From Alphaproteobacteria bacterium (GTDB lineage: Bacteria; Pseudomonadota; Alphaproteobacteria; SP197), in assembly GCA_964291265.2 (NCBI GenBank), contig OZ219747.1, positions 1,856,001 through 1,920,000 on the forward strand: DNA of 64,000 bases, in the 5' to 3' direction. Both the position numbers and the translations under genes were made by a program. Shown in pieces: positions 45,801 to 59,455 of the stretch. The notes under the pieces are model-generated. The model saw only the letters and a list, made by a program, of their open reading frames with translations. It made no database searches and was not told where the DNA came from. How positions within the stretch are numbered: the stretch's first letter is position 1; each line of letters opens with the position of its first letter.

Positions 45801-45926
45801 GTAAGCGTTCGGTCATGGGGTGACGACGATGGACATGACAGTGACATCTGCGCACTGTCCCGGTTTTCGCTCAGCATTCTCTCAGACGCCATCATCCCCT
45901 TCATGAGCGCGTGATCGAACGCCTAT
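45801..45926. mobile_element. IS66-type MITE, copy 2 (diverged)
   Basis: GTAAGCGTTCGGTCA...GTGATCGAACGCCTAT; internal similarity to the other copies; supplies the rpn stop codon. Confidence 0.7.
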
Positions 45927-47086
45927 CCGTGCCTGGGCCTGGCGGCCAGCACATCATCAAGGCTTGGGGCAGCCAGCACTGCCTCCGCCCAGGCCTCCAG
46001 TTCGGCGGCCGACGCACTGCGGACCCGCTCGCGGACCGCATCCGGCACATCACCGAAGCGCAAGGACAGTTGACGAAGAAGAAGTTCCGCGAGGGCCTCG
46101 CTCCGGCCTCGCTCGATTCCCTTCTCGATTCCCTCGGCTCTTCCCCTCTCGATTCCCTCGGTTCTTCCCCTCTCGATTCCCTCGGCTCTCCCCCTCTCGA
46201 TTCCCTCGGTTCTTCCCCTCTCGATTCCCTTCTCAAGTCCCTCGGCTCTTCCCTGTTCGACCCAGGCTTGTGCGATCGTGCCCATCAGCACCTCCCAATG
46301 GTCCGGTTTCGTCCGGCGCAAAGACGCCTCCAGCAGAGGCAGCGTCAGACCCTTTTGCTCGGTCATATAGCGCACAATATGGCGCTCGAAGTCGCTCCCT
46401 GCAAGCAGCCCGTCCATGATCACGTCGAGAAGATCGGGCGGCACCTCCTCGGCAAAGGCAAACCTGAGCGCCAGAAGAGCGGACCGCACCTCGGGTGAGG
46501 TCGACGGCCGGTCCGGCGCCATCACCCCGAGGTCGTGCACCACATAGGCGAACTCCCTGACGAACGACTCCAGCCCCTCGGTCAGCTCGTCGGGCACGTC
46601 GATCATGTCCGGCACCGAGCGCTCCGCCGTCCAGCGGCCCCGGCCATGGTAGAAGACCAGCGGGATGATCACCGGCAGCCTTATCCTGCCGCTCTTGCTC
46701 TTGCTCCGCTCGCTCTTGCTCCGCTCGATCTCGCGCCGCCAGATGTTGACCATGTATCCCAGGAGCTGGAGCGGCGTCGCGGCGTCGACCTGGCTCTTGT
46801 GTTCGAGCAGCACGTAGAGGCGCGCATCTTTGCCGTCCTTCAATCTCACCCGGAACAGCGCATCGCATTGGCTGGTACGGGCAGCCTCGTCGACGAAACT
46901 GCCCTTGACCGCCTCGAGCGGCGCCTTGAGATCGAGGAGGTGAGCCACCTTCGGCGGCAGGTAGTCGGTGAGCAGCGAAGCGGCGCGGGACGGCTCGGAG
47001 ACCAGATCCCGGAACAGCGCATCGTGCCGGTTCGCCGGAAATCTCCTGCGAGAGGCTCCCGGCGTCTCAACGGGCATCGCGCTCAC
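45923..47086 (-). CDS. Rpn (YhgA-like) PD-(D/E)XK recombination-promoting nuclease with C-terminal DUF4351-like tail
   Basis: HDALFRDL, CDALFRV, LLEHKS, LPVIIPLVFYHG, EGxExG repeats, LSLRFGDVP. Confidence 0.9.
   Translation of the reverse strand: MSAMPVETPGASRRRFPANRHDALFRDLVSEPSRAASLLTDYLPPKVAHLLDLKAPLEAVKGSFVDEAARTSQCDALFRVRLKDGKDARLYVLLEHKSQVDAATPLQLLGYMVNIWRREIERSKSERSKSKSGRIRLPVIIPLVFYHGRGRWTAERSVPDMIDVPDELTEGLESFVREFAYVVHDLGVMAPDRPSTSPEVRSALLALRFAFAEEVPPDLLDVIMDGLLAGSDFERHIVRYMTEQKGLTLPLLEASLRRTKPDHWEVLMGTIAQAWVEQGRAEGLEKGIERGRTEGIERGRAEGIERGRTEGIERGRAEGIEKGIERGRSEALAELLLRQLSLRFGDVPDAVRERVRSASAAELEAWAEAVLAAPSLDDVLAARPRHG
46105..46256 (-). repeat. 12/24-bp coding tandem repeats (EGIERGRA/T)n in rpn
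   Basis: Repeated CTCGATTCCCTCGG(C/T)TCTTCCCCT units. Confidence 0.9.
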
Positions 47087-48589
47087 GGGCTGGAAGAGGG
47101 CTGGTGTTCGTCATGGCGGCACCCTACGCCGAACAGCACCAAGGCAGCAATCGTGGCGCCCAAGGCCTTCCCACGCTGGAATTCGCTTGATTTCACTTGA
47201 CGTCAGGCGTTCGTATGTTGCACGCGCGCGGACATTTCCCGCTGGCCATCCCGCTTGGGATGTGCGACGGTCCGGTCATGTCGATTCGCAAGCGCATGGA
47301 AGCTGTCCCGATCCATCAGGAAGCACCTGAGGGTTTTTCCCTGTCTGAGGTTGAGGTTCGCCTGACGAGGCCGGAGGAGCGTCCGCTCCTGGACGCGCTG
47401 ATGAACGAGCACCACTATCTCGGCTTCCGTCGCCTGGCGGGTCGCGGTCTGCGCTACCTTGCGACCTTCAGGGGCCATTGGCTGGGGCTGGCGGCGTGGC
47501 AGAACGGCGCCTTCAAGTGCGCTCCCCGCGACCAGTGGACCGGCTGGAAGCCGGAGCAGCAGTTCCAGCGGCTCTCGATGGTAGCCAACAACACGCGGTT
47601 CTTGATCCTCTCCAAGCCCGGGGTGTTTGCGAACCTTGCTTCCTGTTTCCTTGCGTGCATGACGCGCCGGCTCTGTGACGATTGGCTGCAGGTGCACGGC
47701 CACGGGGTGCTGCTGGCGGAGACGTTCTGCGATCCGGAGATCTTTGCCGGCACGATGTTGAAGGCTGCGGGCTGGACGTGTCTGGGTGAGACCAAGGGGT
47801 TTGCCCGCTCCAACGGGCGCTATACCGATCCCCACGGCAAGCCCAAGGATATCTACGTTACGGCACTGAGGCGCGATGCCCGGGCGCTGCTGTCGAGCCC
47901 GCTGCCGCTTCCCCCCGACGTGGCGCCGCCCTCATGCCCCGAACTGGCGCCCCGGGACCCCAAGGTGCTGCGCTCGCTCTACGCCGAGCTCGCGGCCATT
48001 CCCGACTTCCGCCGGGCGCAGGGAAGGAAGCATACCGCGGCATCGGTGCTCACCGTGCACGTGCTCGCCGAGTTCGCCAACATGAAGGGCTGTGTCGCCG
48101 CCGCGCAGTTCGCGCGGTCCCTGTCCCAGGAGGAGTTGGAGGCCATCGGCGCGTGGCTTAACCCGAAGACGGGGCTTCGCGAGCCCGTCTCCAAGTCCAC
48201 CATCCACCGGGTTATCCAGTCGATCGACCCCGAGGCTCTGGAGGATGTGCTCACCCGCTGGTCCCGGCCTCGGCTTCACCTCGCCCGTGCACTCGCCGCC
48301 GACGGCAAGCGCATCCGCGGCGCCAACCGCAACGGCGATGGCCGTCTGAGAGACCGTGGCCCTTGTCGACCATGAGACCGGCGCGCCCTTTTCCCTCCTG
48401 AACTTCAACGACGAAGGCGGCGAACTGGCGGCCATGCACGATCTCCTGGAGCGCAGCGACATCGGCGGCAAGGTGATCACCCTCGACGCGCTGCATACGA
48501 CACGCCATACCGCGAAGCTGATGTTGATGGCTGCATAGAACGGCGGGATTTCGGCGATTTGCCGCGCTTTGTCAGGGTCGTGTTTCTTC

Positions 48590-48681
48590 CCTGTTGTCAG
48601 GTCCTATTGTCACGTCCTGTTGTCGTGGTTTGAGTGTTCGGCTGGTTGTCTCCCCGAGCGCCGCCGTCTTTTCCTATTGTC
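48590..48681 (+). repeat. CCT(G/A)TTGTC direct repeats in the IS21 left end
   Basis: Copies at 48590, 48603, 48616 (13-bp period) and 48673. Confidence 0.75.
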
Positions 48682-48999
48682 GTTTTGGTCCGGTTCGGGT
48701 TCCGTCGACCTCTGCTTCGGTCTTGGTGACGGTTGCCGGGAGGGTTCCGGTTCCGAGGCACTCGCGGGATTGTTTGTCTTCCCTGTGGGCGGGTCGCGTT
48801 GTCCGGTCCCGGGGCGGCGTTTTTGCCGCCGCCCCGGGTGGATGCTAGATCGGCATCAAGAGAAAGAGCGATGCGATGCCGGGCGGAGTTGTGACGCCCC
48901 CCGGCGCAGCACCCGGACGAGCCGGTCACGGGGGACCGAACTCCCGTGTATTGTCGAGCCATTTTGCGTCCGGGTCCACCCCCGCTCTCGAGACGGATC

Positions 49000-49476
49000 G
49001 TGTGCACGACGGGACGACTGTTCAACTGCAAGCGGTGTCAGCGGCAGGTTGTTCTCTGCCGGTCGTGTGACCGGGGGCATGTGTATTGCTCCAAGGAGTG
49101 CAGGGAATCGTCCCGGATCGAGCGGCGCCGCGCGTCGCGTCGTCGCTACCAGAGCACGCTGAAGGGCCGTGAGACGGGCCGTCACCGCCAGCGGCGTTAT
49201 CGGCTCCGCAAGGCGGAGGAGGCGCGTGCGTTGAAGGCCAGGGCGGCGATGGTTGCCGAGATCATGGGCACGCAGACGTCTGCTGTGGTGCTGCTTGGCG
49301 ACGTTCCGGCGGTGTCTGGAGACGCCGGTTCTGAAGAAATCGTTACGGACCACCCTTCCCGACTGCTGCCGACCTCCCTACCTGCGGTTGTGAAGGCGCG
49401 AGAGCGGCGCGAATCGCCGCTTCGGTGCGCCCGGTGCGGACGGGTCGTGACGCATGTGGTGCTGAGGGACCTGTGA
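49000..49476 (+). CDS. Cys-rich, Arg-rich putative zinc-finger protein upstream of istA
   Basis: CKRC...CRSC...YCSKEC and C-terminal CARC; start uncertain. Confidence 0.7.
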   Translation: MCTTGRLFNCKRCQRQVVLCRSCDRGHVYCSKECRESSRIERRRASRRRYQSTLKGRETGRHRQRRYRLRKAEEARALKARAAMVAEIMGTQTSAVVLLGDVPAVSGDAGSEEIVTDHPSRLLPTSLPAVVKARERRESPLRCARCGRVVTHVVLRDL

Positions 49477-49508
49477 TGCGGCGTTGAGGAACCAAAGGGA
49501 GGGAGTTC

Positions 49509-51002
49509 ATGGCGATCGACGAGGACACGCGGGCGACGATCGTGCGGCTGTCGCGGGCCGAGGGCTGGGCTGTGGGGACGATTGCCCGGCATCTCGGCGT
49601 GCACCACGGCACGGTGACGCGGGCGCTCAAGGCGTCGGGGCAGGAGCGGCGGCCGCGGGCCAAGCTCATCGACCCCTTCGTTGCCTTCCTCGGGGAGCGT
49701 CTTGAGGCGTCGCCGGACCTTCCGGCCAGCACGCTCTGGCGACAGGTCGTGGCTCTGGGCTACCGCGGCGGCGAGGATCACTTCCGTCACGACCTGCGCC
49801 GCCTCGGGCTGAGGCCGGTGAAGAGGCCCGAGCCGTCGCTGCGGCTGAGCTTCCTTCCGGGCGAGCAGGCGCAGGTTGACTGGGCCGAGTTCGGGAAGGT
49901 CCGCATTGGCCGGGCGGAGCGCAGGCTCATGGGGCTTCTCGTCACCCTCAGCTACTCGCGCCAGACTGTCCTGAGCCTGTTCCACGACGCGCGGATGGCC
50001 AGCTTCCTGCAAGGCCATGTCGAGGCTTTCGCGGCATTCGGGGGTGTGCCGCGGAGGCTTCTGTACGACAACCTGAAGAGTGCCGTGGTGACGCGCCGCG
50101 GCAAGGCGGTCACCTATCATCCGATGCTGCTCGGCCTCGCGGCCCACTATGCCTTCGAACCGAGCGCCGCCTGGCCCAGGAGCCCGCAGGAGAAGGGCCG
50201 CGTGGAACGCCGTGTGCGCTTCGCGCGCACCGGGTTCTTCGCCGGGCGCGACATCACGGTCCCGCTCGGCGAGCTCAACGCCGCAGTTCGGGAGTGGTGC
50301 TTCGGCGCCGCCGCGGAGCGGCCCTGGCCGGACGACGACAGTCTCCTGGTGCGGGACGCCTTCGCCCGGGAGAGGGAGCACCTGATCGTCCTTCCCGCCG
50401 ATCCCTTCCCGCATCACGAGGTCCGCCCGGTGCGCATCGACAAGACCTGCCACGCCCGCTTCGACACCAACGACTACAGCGTTCCGGGTAGCTTCTCCAA
50501 GGCCCTGCTGACGCTGGTCGCCGACCGCGACGAGGTTCGCATCCTCGACGGCGCCGACGAGGTCGCGCGCCACCGACGCTCCTACGACAGGAAGCAGGCC
50601 GTCACCGATCCGGAGCATGCCAGGGCGATCGCCGCGGGCAAGCGGCGGGCCCGCTCCATGAGCGTCCGCGACCGGGTCCTGCGCACCGTGCCGCGGGCCG
50701 AGGAGATGCTGGCGCGCGCCGGGACCAACGGGCGCAACGTGGCCTCCTGCGCCCGGATGCTGGAGACGCTTCTCAACGCGCACGGCGCCGACGCTCTCGA
50801 CCGGGCTGTCGCCACGGCGCTGGAGCGCGGCTCGTGCCACCCCGAAACCGTGCGCGTCATCATCGAGGAGCGCCGCCGGGAGCAGGGCCTGCCGCCCCTC
50901 AGCATCGCCGACGACGGCCGCGGCGGCCGTGGCACGACGCCGCGGGGGACCGCTCTCGACGCCTACGACAGGCCCGAAGCCAGCGCCAGGAACAAGACAT
51001 GA
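49509..51002 (+). CDS. istA: IS21 family transposase
   Basis: N-terminal HTH, PGEQAQVDW, YDNLKS, KGRVER, NDYSVP. Confidence 0.93.
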   Translation: MAIDEDTRATIVRLSRAEGWAVGTIARHLGVHHGTVTRALKASGQERRPRAKLIDPFVAFLGERLEASPDLPASTLWRQVVALGYRGGEDHFRHDLRRLGLRPVKRPEPSLRLSFLPGEQAQVDWAEFGKVRIGRAERRLMGLLVTLSYSRQTVLSLFHDARMASFLQGHVEAFAAFGGVPRRLLYDNLKSAVVTRRGKAVTYHPMLLGLAAHYAFEPSAAWPRSPQEKGRVERRVRFARTGFFAGRDITVPLGELNAAVREWCFGAAAERPWPDDDSLLVRDAFAREREHLIVLPADPFPHHEVRPVRIDKTCHARFDTNDYSVPGSFSKALLTLVADRDEVRILDGADEVARHRRSYDRKQAVTDPEHARAIAAGKRRARSMSVRDRVLRTVPRAEEMLARAGTNGRNVASCARMLETLLNAHGADALDRAVATALERGSCHPETVRVIIEERRREQGLPPLSIADDGRGGRGTTPRGTALDAYDRPEASARNKT

Positions 51003-51700
51003 GCGAGCTCAGGGAGCGTGCCCGGGCGCTCGGCCTCCACGGGCTCGTCGAACGCTGGGACGAGGTCGCCGGGACCGCATGGATCGAGGAGGTGGTCAGC
51101 GGCGAGGAACAGGCCCGCAGGGCCCGCAGCCACGAGCGCCGCCGCGCCGCGGCGCGGCTGCCCGCCTTCAAGCCCCTGGCGGACTTCGACTGGACATGGC
51201 CGCGCGACATCAGCCGGGCTCATGTCGAAGCGCTCCTCGGCCTCGGCTTCGTCGACCGTGCGGACAACGCCGTGCTCGTCGGCGGGCAGGGCACCGGAAA
51301 GACCATGATCGCCGCCAACGTGGCTCACCAGGCCCTGCTGCACGGCCACACCGTCCGCTTCGAGAAGGCGCCGGAACTGCTCGAGGCACTCGCCGAGACC
51401 GTCTCGCGCAGCGAGCTGCGCCGCCGCCTCGCGATCCTCGCCAGGCCCCGCCTGCTCGTCCTCGACGAAATCGGCTACGTGACCCTCGAAAGCCACCATG
51501 CCGACATCCTCTACGCCATCGTCTCGCGGCGCTATCAGCGCCGCTCGACCATGGTCACGACAAGCCTCGCCTTCGCCCAGTGGGACCGCGTCTTCCCCAG
51601 CGCCTCCGGCATCGCCGGCACCGTCGACCGGCTCATGCACGACGCAACCCTCATCTCCATCGACAGCGACTCCTGGCGGCTCAGGCGTGAAACCCGATAA
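50999..51700 (+). CDS. istB: IS21 family AAA+ ATPase
   Basis: DFDW, GGQGTGKT, LLVLDEIGY, DRLMH, SWR; ATGA-coupled to istA. Confidence 0.93.
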   Translation: MSELRERARALGLHGLVERWDEVAGTAWIEEVVSGEEQARRARSHERRRAAARLPAFKPLADFDWTWPRDISRAHVEALLGLGFVDRADNAVLVGGQGTGKTMIAANVAHQALLHGHTVRFEKAPELLEALAETVSRSELRRRLAILARPRLLVLDEIGYVTLESHHADILYAIVSRRYQRRSTMVTTSLAFAQWDRVFPSASGIAGTVDRLMHDATLISIDSDSWRLRRETR

Positions 51701-52580
51701 ACCCCGCCGCGTCGACTTCGACGCCGTCAAGCGCATGCCGTTCGAACGCATCGCCGCCGACTGGGGATACGTCCGCGACGAACAGGCCTCGACACGCGCC
51801 AACCCCGTCCTGTGCGCACCCGGCCTGCCGAAGCTCGTCACGAAGTGCCTCAACAACGGACACTGGGTCTACTTCAACACCCAGAACGATGAAGACAACG
51901 GAACCGTCATCGACTTCATGCTCAACCGCGGACTGGCCTTCGCCGACATCTGCACCCGCTTCGCAGCACCCGACGCCGCGCCACGCGACTTCCGCAGCCT
52001 CTGGGCCGCGGCAACGCCCGATGCGGCCCCGGACTGGCTCACCGGGCGCGGCATCCTCCCGGAGACCCTCGACACCTGCCGCCCCCTGGTCCGCCGCGAC
52101 CACAACGGACGCGTCCTCTTCGCCCATCGCAACAGGAAGCGAAAGCTCACCGGCTTCGAGATCGGTCCCCCCGACGGACCGAAACGCTTCGCCACCGGTG
52201 GAACCCGAAGCCTGTTCGCCGTCCGCGCCGGAACCGCCGCGGACCTCGAGGCCCTCGTCATCACCGAAAGCGCCGTCGACGCCCTCAGCCTGGCCCAGAT
52301 CGACCAATGTCCCCCCAGCCACGCCTTCCTCTCCACCGCCGGGGCACCCTCGCGAAGACAGCACGAACAGATCAGCCTCGCCGCAAGCAGCCTGCCCAAC
52401 GTCAGGACCATCGTCCTCGCCCAGGACCACGACGAGGCCGGAGAGCGACAGGCCGAAACCCTGCGCAAAAAGATGAAGCTCCCCTCCCACGTCTCGTTCC
52501 ACAGACGCAGACCGCCGGAAAACGCCGACTGGAACGACGTCGTCAACGCCAGGACCAAAGAACCACAAGCGAGATCATGA
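51687..52580 (+). CDS. Toprim-domain primase-like protein (DUF3991/Toprim_2-like)
   Basis: GTG start overlaps the istB end; NGTVIDF, WLTGRGI, ITESAVDALS, AQDHDEAG, DWND. Confidence 0.82.
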   Translation: MKPDKPRRVDFDAVKRMPFERIAADWGYVRDEQASTRANPVLCAPGLPKLVTKCLNNGHWVYFNTQNDEDNGTVIDFMLNRGLAFADICTRFAAPDAAPRDFRSLWAAATPDAAPDWLTGRGILPETLDTCRPLVRRDHNGRVLFAHRNRKRKLTGFEIGPPDGPKRFATGGTRSLFAVRAGTAADLEALVITESAVDALSLAQIDQCPPSHAFLSTAGAPSRRQHEQISLAASSLPNVRTIVLAQDHDEAGERQAETLRKKMKLPSHVSFHRRRPPENADWNDVVNARTKEPQARS

Positions 52581-52606
52581 CCACGTCCGTCACAAGGAGA
52601 CCACTC

Positions 52607-52897
52607 ATGCCCCTCACGCCCGCCGAAAAGCAGCGGTGATACCGGGAACGGCGCAAGGCCGGCATCCCTCCCGTCCACACCCCAAAGCACCGTGACCGGC
52701 GCTCGCGACCGCAACGCTGGAACGACGCCGTGGCCGAACTGCGCTCCCTGCAGGACGAATGGCGTGACCACCTCGACAGCATCCCCGAAAGCCTCCGTGA
52801 CACGCCTTACGGAGAACGCCTGCAGAGCGTCGCCGATGCCGACATCGAGGCCCTCGAGGACATCGAACCGCCACGCGGCTACGGAAGGGATACGTGA
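52607..52897 (+). pseudogene. Small helical IS-associated protein with an in-frame TGA (52637)
   Basis: MPLTPAEKQR*YRERRK...QRWNDAVAEL...PPRGYGRDT. Confidence 0.65.
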
Positions 52898-53490
52898 TCC
52901 CGCAAGACCCTTGAACGCGGTCACGCGTTACCATCCAGGAATGAGAACGTCTCACCCCGACGCGCCGCTCAGCCTCCCCGGGAAACACCCGGGCCGTCCA
53001 AACGACACCGCATCACGAGACTGCCGCAGCCTCTGAGCCGCAGCGACGCCCGATCCGCCGCCGGGCTGGCTCACAGGTCGCAGCATCCGCCCGAAAACAC
53101 TCGACGCCTGCCGCACCCTGCAGGACGAATGGCGTGACCGCCTCGACAGCATCCCCGAAACCCTCCGTGACACGCCTTACGGAGAACGCCTGCAGAGCGT
53201 CGCCGATGCCGACATCGAGGCTCTCGAGGACATCGAACCGCCACGCGGCTACGGAAGGGACACGTAATCTCGCAAGACCCTTGAACGCGGTCACGCGTTA
53301 CCATCCAGGAATGAGAACGTCTCACCCCGACGCGCCGCTCAGCCTCCCCGGGAAACCCCCGGGCCGTCCAAACGACACCACATCACGAGACTGCCGCAGC
53401 CGCTGAGCCGCAGCAACGCCCGATCCGCCGCCGGACTGGCTCACAGGTCGCAGCATCCGCCCGAAAACACTCGACGCCTGCCGCACCCTG
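52746..53490 (+). repeat. 370-bp tandem duplication, including decayed copies of part of the Toprim gene
   Basis: CAGGACGAAT at 52751 and 53121; 53020-53120 and 53390-53718 align with parts of 51988-52560. Confidence 0.9.
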
Positions 53491-54106
53491 CGCCGCCGCA
53501 ACCGCAACGCACGCAGCCTCTTCGCCCAGCGCAACAGAAACCGTCAGCTCTCCAGCCTCGAGATCGTCCCGCCCGACGAACCACGACGAGGACGGAGAAC
53601 GCCAGAACGAAACCACGCGCAAAAGCCTGAAGCTCCCCTCCCACATCACGTTCCACAAACGCCGAACGCCAGAAAACGCCGACCGGAACGACATCGTCAA
53701 CGTCAATGCAAGACCAATGGGATCCAACAATAGGCAGAAAACAAAGACCGGGCGGACCTTCGTCCAATGCCGCACGTTCTCCTGTCGTGGTCACCCACTC
53801 ACACGATCAGCGCCCAAAAGAGCGGTTCTCCGCCAATATCCCGCCGTTCTAAATCGCCGCCGACAGCTGATCACACAACGCGCGGATTACGTCTTCGTCG
53901 TCAAGGGCAACGCTCCGGAGACCTTCGCCATCCTCGACAGCATCAATTGGCAAAAGGACGCCACCGGCCACTTCACGGAGCCGTTCGACAAGGCGCACGG
54001 TCGACTGGAGCAGCGTTCGATCAGCGTCCTCGTCCCGTTGGACGGTCTGATCAACTATCCGGGCGTCCGTCAGGTCGCCCGCATCACCCGCTATCGGGAG
54101 CCGTGG

Positions 54107-54298
54107 AAGAAAGGCTCCGGCGATGCCGGGAAGGAAGGCCCCGGCGATGCCGGGAAGGAAGGCCCTGGCGATGCCGGGAAGAAAGGCTCCGGCGATGCCG
54201 GGAAGGAAGGCTCCGGCGATGCCGGGAAGGAAGGCCCTGGCGATGCCGGGAAGGAAGGCCCCGGCGATGCCGGGAAGAAAGGCCCCGACGATGCCGGG
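54107..54298 (+). repeat. 8 x 24-bp in-frame tandem repeat (K[E/K]G[P/S]GDAG) inside the ISAs1 transposase
   Basis: AAG(G/A)AAGGC(C/T)CCGGCGATGCCGGG units. Confidence 0.92.
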
Positions 54299-55842
54299 AA
54301 GCAAGAAGAGAAGGATTACACGGAAACCGATTACATCATCACCTCTCTCGATACGGGGGCCACGTCGCCGGAAGAGTTGCTGCGACTGAACCGCCGCCAC
54401 TGGGCCGTGGAAAATCTGAACCATCGACAAAGGGATTGCGTCTTCGGCGAAGACGCCTGCCTGACCCGCACCGACAACGGCCCGGCGAACCGGGCCAGCC
54501 TCAACAACATCGCGCTCGCGGTGATCTTCGCCAACCGCCGCGAGGCCGAAAGCCTCGCCGAAACCCGGCGCCGCCTACAACTGGACCGTCGCGAGGCCAT
54601 CAACGCCCTGACCCGGCCCTGAGACGCCTTGAACGTCCGGGGATCCCGGAACGCTGCCAGAACATCGAGAACCAGTAAGCGTTCGGCCACGCGGTGATTG
54701 TTGGTGATATTCACCGGTTGAGGATGCGTTTGGGAGGCGCACCACGTGGCGGTTCGCTGTTGGGTCCGAAGACGATGGGTCCGGGTCGGGTTGCTCGTCG
54801 TTGGGGTGGCGGCAGGGTGATGAGGCCGTCGCGGTGCATGGCCAGAAAGGCGACATGCGCCATCATGTTCTTGAGGCCCCGTCGGGCTTGTATCAGCCGG
54901 TCTCGCGGCAGAAGGCGCGGGCGATGGCCGCACGGGTGGGGTGCTGGGTGATCAGGGAGCGCAACAGCGCCATCTCGTGCGCGGTGAAGTCACGGCCGTC
55001 GTAACGGCACTCGATCACCCCGGTTCCATGAGGTCCCTTCGACGCTCCGGGGGCATCGACCATGGCAGCCACGGGTCGAGGTCATCCGGCGGCTTGCCGC
55101 CGTTCTGCGCGCAGGCCTCAAGCCACTCATGAAGCCAGCGCCGAACATTGATGTTGTTCATGGCAAGGGTGCCGATGACCGAGTACATGATGGCGGTGAA
55201 GGCGGCGCCTTCCTCGCTGTCGGAGCCGAAGCTCAGCTTTCTCGCGGTCACCGCACCCCGGAGGGTTCTCTCGGCAAAGTTGTTGTCCATGGGCACCTGG
55301 GGATGGTCGACAAAGACGCACAGTCCCTCGCGGTGACGGATCAGGGAACGCAAGGGCTTCGCTTCGCGTGCACCCTCGGGCAAGGCGTCGAGTTCCTCCT
55401 GAGCCTGCCTGAACAGCGCCTCGACAGCCGCACGAAGGTCCTTCTGCAGGGCATTGAACCTCGCTGACTGACGCTTGCGTGCGGGATCGTAGTGCTTCAG
55501 CCGTTGCCCATTCAGTGTGTAGATCAGCGCGATCCTGTCGAGCCACTTGTCGCACCACTCTTCCAGCCCCTCTTGGCCTGCCGCAGCCTCGATCACATCG
55601 CGCCTGGAGTGCGCCCAGCAAAGGCAGAGGATCACCTTGCCATCAAGCTCACGCTCCAGTTTCCTGTAGACCGCGTAGCGATCGCAGACAAGGAAGACGG
55701 TGCCTTCGGTGGAGGCGAACAGCACCATGGCCACCCGGGTGCTGCGTGACGGGTCGATAAGGAAGAAGACGGAGTCGGCGCTGACCGCGGTCCACAGCCA
55801 GGCCTTCTGCGAGCGCCCCGAGGCCTTGAGGGACTGGATGCG

Positions 55843-57761
55843 GTGTGCCAGGCGAACTGGCGGAAGGTAGGGGGTGAAAGTCCCCTGAAACGAAGGAGTA
55901 ACCAAACCACGTTTCTCCGCGAGCCGTGCGTCGGTTCCCGCGAGGGGGCAGGCGAAGCGTCGGTAGCGGTACGGATGGGCAGGGCTAATGAGCACCGAAA
56001 AGTCCGTTGTTCGGGGTGCCGAGGCTTTCGCATCGGTCGAAGGCAACATCGCAGGCATCGATTTGGTGAGATGTCGGCGAGCCCCGCGGTGTCGGAGAAC
56101 CCATGCACGTCCGCACGCCTTCTGTTGGGACCCTGGGAGGTCTTCGAACTATCCCGCCTGTCGTGGCGGGACCGTGTAGGGAAAGGAGAAAGCCGAAGCC
56201 TATGAGGAACGGTTTGAAGAAGTCGGATGGGGCCGTAAGACCGGTGAAGGCGGCGAACAAGGGAGCGTCAGCTTCTGCGGAGTCGCTGGAGGAAAGGGCC
56301 TCAACCAAGGGGAATCCGGGACGCCAAAGCACGCACCGAACGCAGTGTCGGGCAAGTGTGCCACAGGCGGCGGACCGGATACGGGAAGCTGCAGAGAGGA
56401 ACCCGAAGGAGCGTCTCACTGCACTCTTCCATCACATTACGCCGGACGCGCTCCGGGCGGCCTACTTCGGTTTGAAGAAGGAAGCCTCGGCAGGTGTCGA
56501 CGGCGTGACGTGGGCGGCGTATGGCGAGGGTCTGGACGAGCGCTTGCTTGATCTGCACTCGCGCCTGCATCGTGGGGGAGCGTACCGGGCGCCGCCGGTT
56601 CGGCGGGTTGAGATACCCAAGCCGGACGGCGGGACACGACCGCTCGGGATTGCCGCACTGGAGGACAAGATCGTCCAGAAGGCGGTTGTGGATGTGATCC
56701 TGACACCGATTTATGAGGTGGAGTTCCTTGGCTTCAGCTACGGGTTCCGACCGGGCCGAGGGGCGCATGACGCTCTCGACGCCCTGGCGTTCGGGATCGA
56801 GCGGCGCAAGGTCAACTGGATAGTCGACGCGGACATTCAGGGGTACTTCGACACAATCCCGAGGGATTGGTTGATCAAGTTCCTGGAGCATCGCATTGGC
56901 GACAGGCGGGTGATCCGTCTGATCCGCAAGTGGCTGAACGCTGGCGTCATGACCGACGGATCATGGAGCGACACCGGTGCGGGCACGCCTCAGGGCGCCA
57001 TTGTCAGCCCCTGCCTGGCGAACGTGTTTCTGCACTACGTGCTCGATCTGTGGTTTCACAAGGCATGGCGTCCGAAGGTTCCGAACGGTAAAGCGATCAT
57101 TGTCCGCTACGCGGACGATATTGTGGTCGGGTTCCAGCATAAGCGGGATGCGGAGACATACCTTCGCGACGTTCGGGAGAGGCTGGACCGCTTTGGTCTC
57201 ACCCTTCACCCGGACAAGACCCGTCTCGTTGAGTTTGGACGGTTTGCCAAGGCGAACCGGCGATCTCGCGGGGCGGGCAGGCCGGAGACGTTCGACTTCC
57301 TGGGCTTCACGCACTTCTGCACGGAGACCCGGAGAGGACGCTTCAGGCTTGGTCGCAAGCCGGTCGCAAAACGGGTCGCAAGGACCCTGGCGCGCATCGA
57401 GGAGGTGCTTCGCAATCGACGGCATCACGACATATGGGAGGTCGGCATGTGGCTTGGGCGAGTTGTCAATGGCTGGTCCAACTACTTCGCCGTTCCGGGG
57501 TCGACCCGATGGCTGCGCACGTTCCGCCAAAGGCTGCAACGCCTATGGCTGCGAGCGATCCGCCGCCGCTCCCAGCGCCACTGCTTTGACTGGAAGCGAT
57601 TGGAGCGCATGACCGAGCTTCTTTGGCCGCGCGTCTCCATCCGCCACCCATGGCCGGACCAGCGGTTTACCGTCAAGCACCCGAGGTAGGAGCCGGATGG
57701 ATTAACGTCCATGTCCGGATCTGTGCGGGGGGTGCGCAGCAATGCGCATCCCTACCGCGAC
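55843..57761 (+). mobile_element. Group II intron, full length (1919 nt)
   Basis: GTGTG...CGCGAC boundaries are exact when compared with the uninterrupted site in copy A (22631-22655); DV and DVI present. Confidence 0.95.
56202..57689 (+). CDS. ltrA: Group II intron reverse transcriptase/maturase (no C-terminal endonuclease domain evident)
   Basis: IPKPDGGTRPLG, SYGFRPGR, GTPQG, RYADD, FDFLGF, GWSNYF. Confidence 0.95.
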   Translation: MRNGLKKSDGAVRPVKAANKGASASAESLEERASTKGNPGRQSTHRTQCRASVPQAADRIREAAERNPKERLTALFHHITPDALRAAYFGLKKEASAGVDGVTWAAYGEGLDERLLDLHSRLHRGGAYRAPPVRRVEIPKPDGGTRPLGIAALEDKIVQKAVVDVILTPIYEVEFLGFSYGFRPGRGAHDALDALAFGIERRKVNWIVDADIQGYFDTIPRDWLIKFLEHRIGDRRVIRLIRKWLNAGVMTDGSWSDTGAGTPQGAIVSPCLANVFLHYVLDLWFHKAWRPKVPNGKAIIVRYADDIVVGFQHKRDAETYLRDVRERLDRFGLTLHPDKTRLVEFGRFAKANRRSRGAGRPETFDFLGFTHFCTETRRGRFRLGRKPVAKRVARTLARIEEVLRNRRHHDIWEVGMWLGRVVNGWSNYFAVPGSTRWLRTFRQRLQRLWLRAIRRRSQRHCFDWKRLERMTELLWPRVSIRHPWPDQRFTVKHPR

Positions 57762-59455
57762 CCAGCTGGTCTCGTCGCCGTGGCGCACCGTCAGCCGGTT
57801 CTGATGATCGAGGATGGCCTGAGCGAGAGGCGCGAACATCGGCGTCATCTTCTTCATGCCGCCAGCGATCGTTCCCGGCGCCATCGGCAGTCCCTGGTCT
57901 TCCAGCCATCGCGAGACCCGGCGCAGGGGACGCAAGCAGGCGAAGCGCTCATAGAGCACGCATGCCCAGACACTGATGCCGAAGGGGGTATTCGCAAGCA
58001 AGCGCAAAGGTGGCGGCGCGATGATCTCCGCAGGCGCCGACGAACACTGACAACCACGGCGCCAACGCCCACGCTCAATCCGCCGGACATGAGCCTTGAC
58101 ATGGACCTCCATGATCGAGGTCTCGTGGCTGCCGTTGGCCACATAGGGCTCGCCGCAACACGGGCACGTGCGCTGCGATGCCGGTGGATCATGGCGTTCG
58201 TGCTTCTCCTTGAGCTTCGGACGCGGAGTGCGCCCGTGGCCGCTCTTGCCAGGTTGCTGACCCCGCTTGTTCCCGGTGCCTTCCTTCTTCTTCCGTTTCT
58301 CGCTCTTCGACCCGAAGCGCGCCGTCGCGTGCTTGGCACGCGTCCCGCGGAGATTCCTCAGCTCGCTCGCCTGTTCAGCGTTCTTGAGCTTCAGAGCGTC
58401 CCTTTCCTGCTCCAGCGCCTCCGCTCGGGCCTGTCCACGCTTCACCTCCCGGCGAGCCTCCTTGAGCTGATCACGAGTGCGGTCGAGATGAAACTTGAAT
58501 GTGCCCGCACGGGCACGGGCAGAATTCTTCGCACGGCGCAGGTCACGCATACGCGCTTCCGCCGCATCCGCACGAACCCGCTCCGCCTCATAGAGCGCAC
58601 GCCAGTCAGGCGCCTCGCATGACAAGGCCACTGACGCCCGACATAGGCCGTCACCACCTCCCGTCAGCTGCTGTGTCGCTCCGCGCGTCTCGGCAAAAGT
58701 CTTCATGGCCTCGACCATAATCGAGACCAAACGAGTTTACCAGCTCTTTCTCAGACGATAGTCAGCAAGACCCAAACCAACCAAAATCAGCCATCACCGA
58801 ACGGCCGAACGCTTACGAGAACCAAGCATCCGGGCCGAAAACGCTGCCAGTGTCGCTGTGCGGGCGGCACTGAAGCCACGGAATCCGCCCAGTGACATCC
58901 CGATTCGGCCGCGATTCGTCGGCCTCGCGCAAGATCAGATGGCCGATTCGGGCGCAATTCATCAGCTTCCCGAAAAATCAGCCGTAGCGTAGGAAAGTCC
59001 TGCGTGGCGCCTGGCCCGGGACCTGCCAGCATCAAGACCTCGATAACGAAGGCTTCGATGTATTGGTTCGGGATCGGGAGGTCCACGCGCCGGGCGCTGT
59101 CGGCCGGATCCGTGGAGGTCAAGGACCATGTTTCGTCCTTGTTGGGCGATGCGGCTGGCCGGCGTGATCTCGGGCTCATGAGCGTGCGAGACGCTCGACG
59201 CTCATGACGCGGCACACGGCGATGGCGTCGAAGGCCAGACACCCCTCATCTCGCCGGTCTGGCGAAGCCGGTCCGTATGCCGGCCTTCAGGGTCTTGGAG
59301 TGTGTTCCTTAAGTCGTTGCGATGCCTATATCTCGCATGGGTGGCCTCAGCCCAGGCCATGGTACCCACCATATGTGCTGTTGTGCACCTGATGAATGCC
59401 ACGATTCGTGATTATCCGCGACGTCAGGAACAAACTCTTCAAGGACTCTTCAATC

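Follow-up and report, generated by a model that had tools for sequence, protein, structure and literature searches.

A four-gene IS21-family transposon with a primase-fold Toprim gene and its possible role in replicative transposition

Introduction

The canonical form of an IS21 insertion sequence (IS) consists of istA and istB only and measures about 2-2.5 kb. Why should such an element carry a gene for a primase-like protein? The question is raised by a 64,000-nucleotide stretch of an alphaproteobacterial genome (assembly GCA_964291265.2, contig OZ219747.1, positions 1,856,001 to 1,920,000), hereafter called the window, in whose coordinates features are given unless a contig or locus is named. 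At 48522-53865 it contains an IS21-family element of 5,344 bp with a DUF3991-Toprim gene directly behind istB. An initial annotation of this DNA had proposed a self-priming or replicating transposon.

In this study, we concluded that the element is a four-gene variant of the IS21 family, apparently new, and that the primase-fold protein of its fourth gene may well prime DNA synthesis on single-stranded DNA (ssDNA) exposed in a replicative step of transposition, a reading to which we give a probability of about 0.5.

Results

Boundaries, genes and mobility of the element

The element begins with TGTTGA and ends with CCGACA (TGT...ACA), is flanked on both sides by GCTGA as a 5-bp target-site duplication, and carries close to its termini the region's best and longest inverted repeat (35 nt, 77%, 48536-48570 / 53817-53851). 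The TG...CA ends, inverted repeats and duplication by which the initial annotation had delimited a 5,344-bp unit were all present in the sequence, and the TGT left end is common to 29 of the 30 full copies in the genome. The element comprises the following features, including the open reading frames (ORFs):

48517..48521, no strand: left target-site duplication GCTGA (sequence)
48522..48570, plus strand: left end, TGT..., bearing an imperfect inverted repeat whose core TAGAACGGCGGGAT recurs at the right end (repeat analysis, copy comparison)
48946..49476, plus strand: Cys-rich zinc-finger-like ORF (ZnF), 176 aa; intact in 30/30 copies; only unnamed Atlas clusters match
49509..51002, plus strand: istA, IS21-family DDE transposase, 497 aa, D124/D187/E233; NF033546 222.8 bits, cut-off 160
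50999..51700, plus strand: istB, AAA+ helper ATPase, 233 aa; PF01695 E 3.6e-50; NF038214 191.4 bits, slightly below the cut-off of 200
51687..52580, plus strand: DUF3991-Toprim primase-like gene, 297 aa; Toprim_2 E 3.5e-13, weak DUF3991; intact in 29/30 copies
52607..52897, plus strand: small helical ORF of 96 codons, a passenger; codon 11 is TGA in the window copy
52742..53481, plus strand: 370-bp tandem duplication, two units (repeat family, 97% identity, spacing 370)
53373..53705, plus strand: decayed partial second Toprim copy, residues 96-167 and 247-287 (variability among copies)
53817..53865, minus strand: right end ...ACA with inverted repeat (repeat analysis, copy comparison)
53866..53870, no strand: right target-site duplication GCTGA (sequence)

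The overlap of istA, istB and the Toprim ORF, on which the initial annotation had relied, was found as ATGA for istA/istB and as 14 nt for istB/Toprim, where the GTG start at 51687 lies inside the end of istB and relatives have Met. Like ZnF, istA and istB were intact in 30/30 copies.

The 4.8-Mb host genome holds 30 full-length copies of 97.7-100% identity, three of them 100% identical, plus interrupted copies; 44 left ends and 40 right ends were counted, and element DNA makes up 4.1% of the genome. Of the 30 copies, 21 had target duplications of 5 bp, four of 6 bp and one of 7 bp, and the remaining four had none (26/30 with a duplication); the range in the IS21 family is 4-8 bp. No target consensus was visible among the 21 sites with 5-bp duplications. 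Five of the 30 copies sit within or next to another element copy, 21 have multi-copy DNA in a flank, and the element shows no evident target immunity. Nested self-insertion stacks with 5-6-bp duplications were observed on host contig C2 at 4058043-4075257, 4237410-4248078 and 295923-308929.

The element is a real and active member of the IS21 family. It resembles IS21 and IS5376 in an IstA above the family cut-off, an overlapping istB AAA+ gene, TG...CA inverted-repeat ends, little target specificity and 5-bp duplications, the length given for IS5376 (PMC10122671). In contrast to that family, it and its relatives measure 4.0-5.3 kb and hold two extra conserved genes inside the ends, ZnF upstream and Toprim downstream, which makes four conserved genes against the two of the canonical form.

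Position and selection of the Toprim gene in relatives

The Toprim gene had been taken by the initial annotation for a part of the operon rather than cargo, and its fixed order in relatives, its place inside the element ends and purifying selection bore this out. A Toprim-first scan of species-representative genomes returned 66 loci in 20 genomes, a single genome contributing 25 of these; by the titles of their source records, almost all were alphaproteobacterial metagenome-assembled genomes, plus one Acidimicrobiales. istB stood immediately upstream of Toprim at 62 of the 66 loci and in 19 of the 20 genomes, the other four loci being Toprim fragments, and the order ZnF-istA-istB-Toprim with all four genes detected was found at 55. 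When copies were compared in eight multi-copy genomes, TGT...ACA ends enclosed the Toprim gene in all eight; the elements measured 4.0-4.7 kb and had duplications of roughly 5-7 bp. A search that started from IstA and covered 100 relatives gave ten matches in five same-genus genomes, seven of them followed by istB and Toprim; the other three were a decayed copy with a truncated Toprim gene, an IstA fragment and a Toprim-less sister-type element. These loci share identity values with part of the Toprim-first set, from which they are probably not independent. Close IstA relatives carry the gene.

Ratios of non-synonymous to synonymous substitution (dN/dS) were calculated by the Nei-Gojobori method across 12 elements (11 for ZnF), in which high third-position GC compresses dS. 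The medians were 0.43 for Toprim, 0.42 for istA, 0.39 for istB and 0.55 for ZnF, with Toprim values of 0.21 and 0.22 in the two closest pairs. Gene trees of Toprim and istA were nearly congruent. Among the host copies, Toprim had the fewest variable sites per kb (6.7, against 12.0 in istA and 14.6 in istB), and the relic Toprim copy beside the intact gene decays at 48; four of the six Toprim variants were non-synonymous, a count of small numbers. The Toprim gene is thus under purifying selection like istA and istB, and is a selected and stable component of the element rather than random cargo. At locus L001:1134-7496, two other IS21-family elements were seen to interrupt a Toprim-carrying IS21 copy, and a detached DUF3991-Toprim gene lay between the two.

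Primase fold and catalytic residues of the Toprim protein

The structure model of the Toprim protein had a predicted local distance difference test (pLDDT) score of 92, and its best fold matches were the DnaG, T7 gp4 and Twinkle primase domains (Foldseek, best E 4.5e-8). The top structure alignment from VIA-align was T7 primase 1nui (Z 15.3, root-mean-square deviation 3.5, 179 aligned, model residues 97-292), ahead of DnaG (Z 11.6-13.3), topoisomerase Toprim (10.9) and RNase M5 Toprim (8.9). A phmmer search with the single protein against PDB gave no match; the family profile matched T7 gp4 at E 1.4e-9. Toprim_2, weak DUF3991 and the T7/DnaG primase core fold therefore agree with the assignment suggested by the initial annotation.

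In profile alignments, E194, D198, D247/D249 and D281/D284 fell on the acids of the DnaG EGYMD, DGD and DPDD motifs, and R121 corresponded to T7 R84. R121, E194, D247 and D249 were kept in 28/28 close relatives and D281 in 27/28. All five catalytic acids are kept in the window copy, whose acidic motifs (E194, D198, D247, D249 and DWND with D281/D284) were intact as first annotated. The likeness to the T7 gp4 primase domain and DnaG lies in the catalytic-core fold (N-terminal subdomain plus Toprim), the acidic metal ligands and the R84-equivalent Arg; unlike those enzymes, the protein has no zinc ligands, no helicase or helicase-binding domain, and altered basic residues.

The wider DUF3991-Toprim family comprised 3,258 clusters at E 1e-10, among them many proteins of 750-1,000 aa with the domain at the C-terminus. 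Two scanned plasmid proteins with the domain were relaxase fusions, and other plasmid loci with it adjoined Rep, ParA, coupling-protein or mobilisation genes; by analogy with these settings, priming would be the expected job of the domain on plasmids. Viral contigs held no close Toprim relative, with 20 distant loci, two of them annotated with plasmid-type neighbours. In the portions of the open literature covered, DUF3991 appeared only in the tables of two papers, and no experimental characterisation of DUF3991-Toprim proteins was found there.

Sister elements and the exchangeable fourth gene

IstA relatives numbered 3,291 at E 1e-100, about 27 of them above 59% identity. Eight elements were opened among the 25 best plasmid matches (IstA 42-47% identical); all had ZnF-istA-istB and 0/8 had Toprim. 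A class-wide IstA search yielded 26 loci in 18 of 400 genomes, three sister-type and 23 distant, and none showed Toprim in the sequence available, wider flanks covering 20 of them and several contigs ending near the gene. The sister elements, found on plasmids of Aromatoleum, Paraburkholderia, Mesorhizobium, Methylotuvimicrobium and others, share with the window element the ZnF gene, TGT...ACA ends and a fourth ORF coupled to the istB stop, and differ in a length of about 3.4 kb and in what that ORF encodes, a protein of about 70 aa with a tail like that of the ssDNA-binding protein (SSB), unrelated to the Toprim protein (hhalign probability 0.2%). Their annotations name no more than an IS21 transposase, a helper ATPase and a hypothetical protein. 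In all eight opened elements, an ORF of 61-73 aa overlaps the istB stop by ATGA, the same overlap at which the Toprim gene starts in loci L058 and L059.

Trees were quick trees with SH-aLRT support (112 rows for Toprim, one row having been dropped as a short match; IstA and IstB likewise). The 11 core Toprim elements formed one group in the IstA (100) and IstB (99) trees, and L058/L059 carried a related Toprim behind a sister-type istB, which indicates that the gene was gained, lost or swapped at least twice. L058 and L059, whose source records bear the titles Alphaproteobacteria and Acidimicrobiales, have istB and Toprim genes that are nearly identical; this likeness reflects either a recent transfer across phyla or an error of binning.

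In E. coli, the SSB tail DDDIPF uses its terminal Phe and acidic residues to bind DnaG, Pol III chi and PriA (PMC5872125), and the host SSB of the window genome ends in SDFDDGIPF. The tails of 12 sister loci, read directly, comprised five PF (e.g. DFNDEIPF, FNEHDPPF, TDDPPF), three SF and four with neither or no such ORF. A profile search with the small protein returned 2,819 proteins, and 107 of the best 120 (8/9 after thinning to <60% identity) ended in PF, a count biased toward PF since that tail was part of the search profile; PF ends were found in 0/120 IstA and 0/148 wider Toprim proteins used as controls. This family of more than 2,800 members of about 70 aa carries no Pfam label, and most of its members end in acidic-x-Pro-Phe.

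The same plan extends to another type of transposon. The element of pMOL28 (Cupriavidus metallidurans CH34; ZnF-DDE-AAA) has a fourth gene (L226:4752-5024) whose product is 65% identical over 55 aa to a sister slot-4 protein and ends in LADNDF, and its relatives carry in that slot either an AAA_25 protein plus DUF3991-Toprim, in a 5.16-kb element, or Toprim alone (L055). The pMOL28-type elements, which we take to be of the Tn6049 type, resemble the window element in a four-slot plan of small ORF, DDE transposase, AAA ATPase and slot-4 gene, but have an IS481/rve-like transposase, an AAA_22/ExeA-like ATPase and a Toprim on another branch. On the Toprim tree, three separate lineages thus have DUF3991-Toprim genes behind a DDE-ATPase pair, namely this clade, L067 and L071/L055.

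Two of these relatives were noted in their own right. L067:710-5308 is a distant IS21-type cluster, ZnF - ParB-like - istA - istB - DUF3991/Toprim, with a Toprim from a different branch. The 5.16-kb element is a second primase-carrying transposon in the same genome as the window element (contig C2:47063-52222; L071:7063-12223, minus strand), with ends TAAGCG...CGCTCA, 5-bp duplications and the genes small Cys ORF - rve/IS481-like transposase - AAA_22 ATPase - AAA_25 protein - DUF3991/Toprim. It was present as four uninterrupted copies, two copies interrupted by the IS21 element and a 742-bp right-end fragment, and its transposase is 47% identical to that of the pMOL28 element.

We consider it a tentative proposal, somewhat short of an even chance, that slot 4 in IS21-like and Tn6049-like transposons is an unrecognised, swappable replication-coupling slot, filled either by a DnaG/T7-type primase that the element itself encodes, in some cases together with a helicase, or by an SSB-tail mimic recruiting the host primosome, and that the window element would accordingly be a self-priming IS.

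A captured plasmid passenger would account for some of the same facts. The Toprim gene might have been selected for a role outside transposition, such as converting incoming element-bearing DNA from single- to double-stranded form, or as a Toprim nuclease; its family is at home on mobilisable plasmids and in relaxase fusions, sister elements move without it, the element tolerates true passengers such as the small ORF, and a detached Toprim fragment is also present in the host genome. Yet its position is fixed with a start/stop overlap, it has co-diverged with istA and istB, it takes the same place in three separate transposon lineages, it replaces a conserved slot gene, and primase folds fit it best (Z 15.3 vs 10.9 for topoisomerase and 8.9 for RNase M5). 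We regard this explanation as improbable.

Proposed mechanism and evidence weighing against it

IS21 has been proposed to use copy-out/paste-in transposition (PMC11208146, 10.1101/2023.06.07.543989), in which host replication turns a figure-eight into a double-stranded circle and the 3'-OH of the first nick primes synthesis (PMC7780238). From the mobility, gene order, selection, fold and residues of the element, we infer a plausible model for the part of the Toprim protein in this process. IstA would nick one end, giving a branched intermediate of the figure-eight kind that has been proposed for IS21; one strand would be primed by the free 3'-OH, and the displaced strand would need new primers, which the co-translated Toprim protein could supply in cis, in place of host DnaG. 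In sister elements, the protein of about 70 aa, with an acidic ...PF tail mimicking the SSB C-terminus, may instead recruit host DnaG, PriA or Pol III. IstB would then bring IstA to a random site, where insertion would duplicate 5 bp. In this model the Toprim gene would be an efficiency module and not an absolute need of IS21 chemistry. IS911 needs host DnaG for the step from figure-eight to circle.

Several observations weigh against this mechanism. The 3'-OH of copy-out is already a primer (10.1101/2023.06.07.543989). No sister element examined has a Toprim gene, from which it follows that IS21 chemistry works without a primase gene, and among the 12 sister loci the PF tail was met in only five. 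In the Toprim protein itself, D198, at the position of the essential T7 D161 and E. coli DnaG D269, is Asn in 15 of 28 close relatives and Asp in 37/37 proteins outside the clade; position 160 is Gly, Ala or Ser in the clade and Lys in 35/37 outside proteins. The N-terminal domain (95 residues) has no zinc ligands; it aligns with the DnaG zinc domain in the global alignment but, taken alone, matched it at a probability of 10.5%. The T7 K122 position is, by sequence-profile mapping, Glu across the whole family, so that the basic residue set is only partly matched; K122 and K128 are both essential in T7 primase (PMC9198812, PMC2910064). Finally, the Toprim clade forms one group on a long stem (length 1.14, support 99), which would fit a change of function.

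Such a change could have produced a pseudo-primase in transition, a protein that binds ssDNA or forks and serves as a transpososome adaptor or regulator without primer synthesis, whether by shielding the displaced strand, by handing the host replisome the intermediate or by directing insertion towards forks. The substitutions at D198 and position 160, the missing zinc ligands, the long stem and the exchange, within one slot, with a small protein that is not an enzyme all speak for it. On the other hand, E194, D247, D249, D281, D284 and R121 are invariant or nearly so over 50-80% identity, and metal ligands would not be expected to persist in a purely structural protein; the clade has a new invariant residue, R167 (R/K166-R167 lie near the T7 K128 position by sequence-profile mapping); and D198 is kept in the window copy. 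We judged a protein of this kind rather unlikely, though less so than a plasmid passenger. The self-priming of the initial annotation is plausible, with support from the slot swap with an SSB-tail-like protein, and is weakened by the thousands of primase-less sister elements and by D198N in 15/28.

A candidate supply of the missing zinc domain in trans by the ZnF protein was dropped because the ZnF ORF also occurs in Toprim-less sister elements.

Proposed replication of an excised circle

The initial annotation had also allowed for a replicating circle. In this explanation the excised circle would replicate as a mini-plasmid, which the primase would amplify ahead of reinsertion, IstB serving as its DnaC-like loader. 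The high copy number (4.1% of the genome), a weak score of IstB against DnaC/DnaI models, the precedent of TnGBS circles (PMC3942029) and a symmetric end-to-centre G+T gradient along the element could all be read in its favor. The element is G+T-rich at its left end and C+A-rich at its right, with four-fold sites on one coding strand going from +0.41 to -0.64, an asymmetry that would fit synthesis from both ends inwards. The gradient (first minus last quarter) was 0.21-0.47 in eight Toprim elements vs 0.07 and 0.14 in two sister elements, a comparison confounded by host.

Against the circle, the gradient is equally strong in a primase-less repeat family of 2,443 bp in the same genome (0.43 vs 0.42), and weak DnaC similarity is expected of any IstB from the shared AAA+ scaffold (PMC11208146). 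No Rep, helicase or polymerase family was matched on the five scanned element ORFs (Pfam/NCBIfam). A junction of right and left ends (53865->48522) was found neither in the assembly nor in three public sequencing runs available as contigs, which show presence and not absence. The claim of a replicating circle was accordingly not upheld, and we consider it very improbable. The gradient as a sign of a special replication mode was rejected on the grounds that several primase-less families of the same genome have values of 0.25-0.43; among other IS-like families in the host genome, some show such a gradient and others none.

Right arm, insertion site and neighbourhood

The last ~1 kb of the element is the 370-bp tandem duplication and the decayed second Toprim copy, which accounts for the 4.0-4.7 kb of the minimal element in relatives. 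The small helical ORF had been counted among the genes of the element; with its TGA at codon 11 in the window, it is a passenger and not a core gene. It is intact in 27/30 copies and TGA-broken in three identical ones, was detected in just one further genome among the 20, and also rides on a 1,978-bp element with four copies, for which reasons its candidacy as a core gene was rejected; kinship with the slot-4 protein was likewise rejected, the two being unrelated. The 1,978-bp element (contig C2:2591488-2593465 and three more copies) carries a 76%-identical copy of this ORF, and its transposase is presumably IS110-like, judging from its motifs. Multiple subterminal repeats that bind IstA are a feature of the IS21 family; at the right end of this element, an AGAAC(C/G)G motif at 21-bp spacing was noted by eye, and a formal repeat search returned no such family; an in-frame 'IPPF-stop' within the right inverted repeat was taken as a coincidence of IstA-binding sequence. 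A sigma-70-type promoter was looked for in the element and none was found.

The element interrupts the frame of an ISAs1-type transposase, which resumes after the duplication. The host site, outside the element, comprises:

47197..48521, plus strand: ISAs1-type transposase gene, left part (DDE_Tnp_1_assoc E 2.1e-12; frame resumes past the element)
53871..54622, plus strand: ISAs1-type transposase gene, right part (DDE_Tnp_1 E 2e-4)

The interrupted transposase has an N-terminal DruA-like domain (PF14236 E 4.3e-19, window 47197-48375) and, in its C-terminal part, a 24-bp tandem repeat at 54105-54300. The empty-site joint 48515->53865 was present in two of the three public runs, as is expected of an insertion target that is itself multi-copy. 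The neighbourhood in the window is dense mobile DNA. From motifs seen by eye, we take 45923-47086 (minus strand) to be a Rpn/YhgA-like transposase gene, 56103-57689 (plus strand) a group II intron-type reverse transcriptase and 55015-58730 (minus strand) a split IS66-like transposase.

Discussion

Self-synthesizing transposons (casposons, pipolins and Polintons) encode their own DNA polymerase; among the five scanned ORFs of the window element, no DNA polymerase family was matched in Pfam/NCBIfam. Two systems offer partial precedents. The insertion sequence excision enhancer (IEE), an AEP PrimPol-helicase, is an example of a primase/polymerase-type enzyme acting on copy-out intermediates, but has an unrelated AEP fold, is encoded outside the IS and promotes excision. 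TnGBS is a DDE element with replication functions; in contrast, it uses a plasmid replicase and conjugation genes, families that matched none of the five scanned ORFs here. In the open literature, no description was found of an IS21 element with a primase gene or of an SSB-tail mimic in a transposon, a search that left subscription journals, ISfinder and TnCentral uncovered.

The copy-out/paste-in route of transposition is used by most bacterial IS families, and the conversion of its intermediate into a double-stranded copy is assigned to an unnamed 'host replication machinery' (PMC7780238). An IS with its own primase, together with sisters that have a probable SSB-tail mimic in the same position, would provide two natural genetic handles on that step, and the slot, if our proposal is true, would explain how DDE elements pass a branched intermediate to DNA synthesis. 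Such an IS would also give a first function to the DUF3991-Toprim family (3,258 clusters) and to the slot-4 family of proteins of about 70 aa with more than 2,800 members. If the primase is dead, the element still represents an undescribed four-gene branch of IS21.

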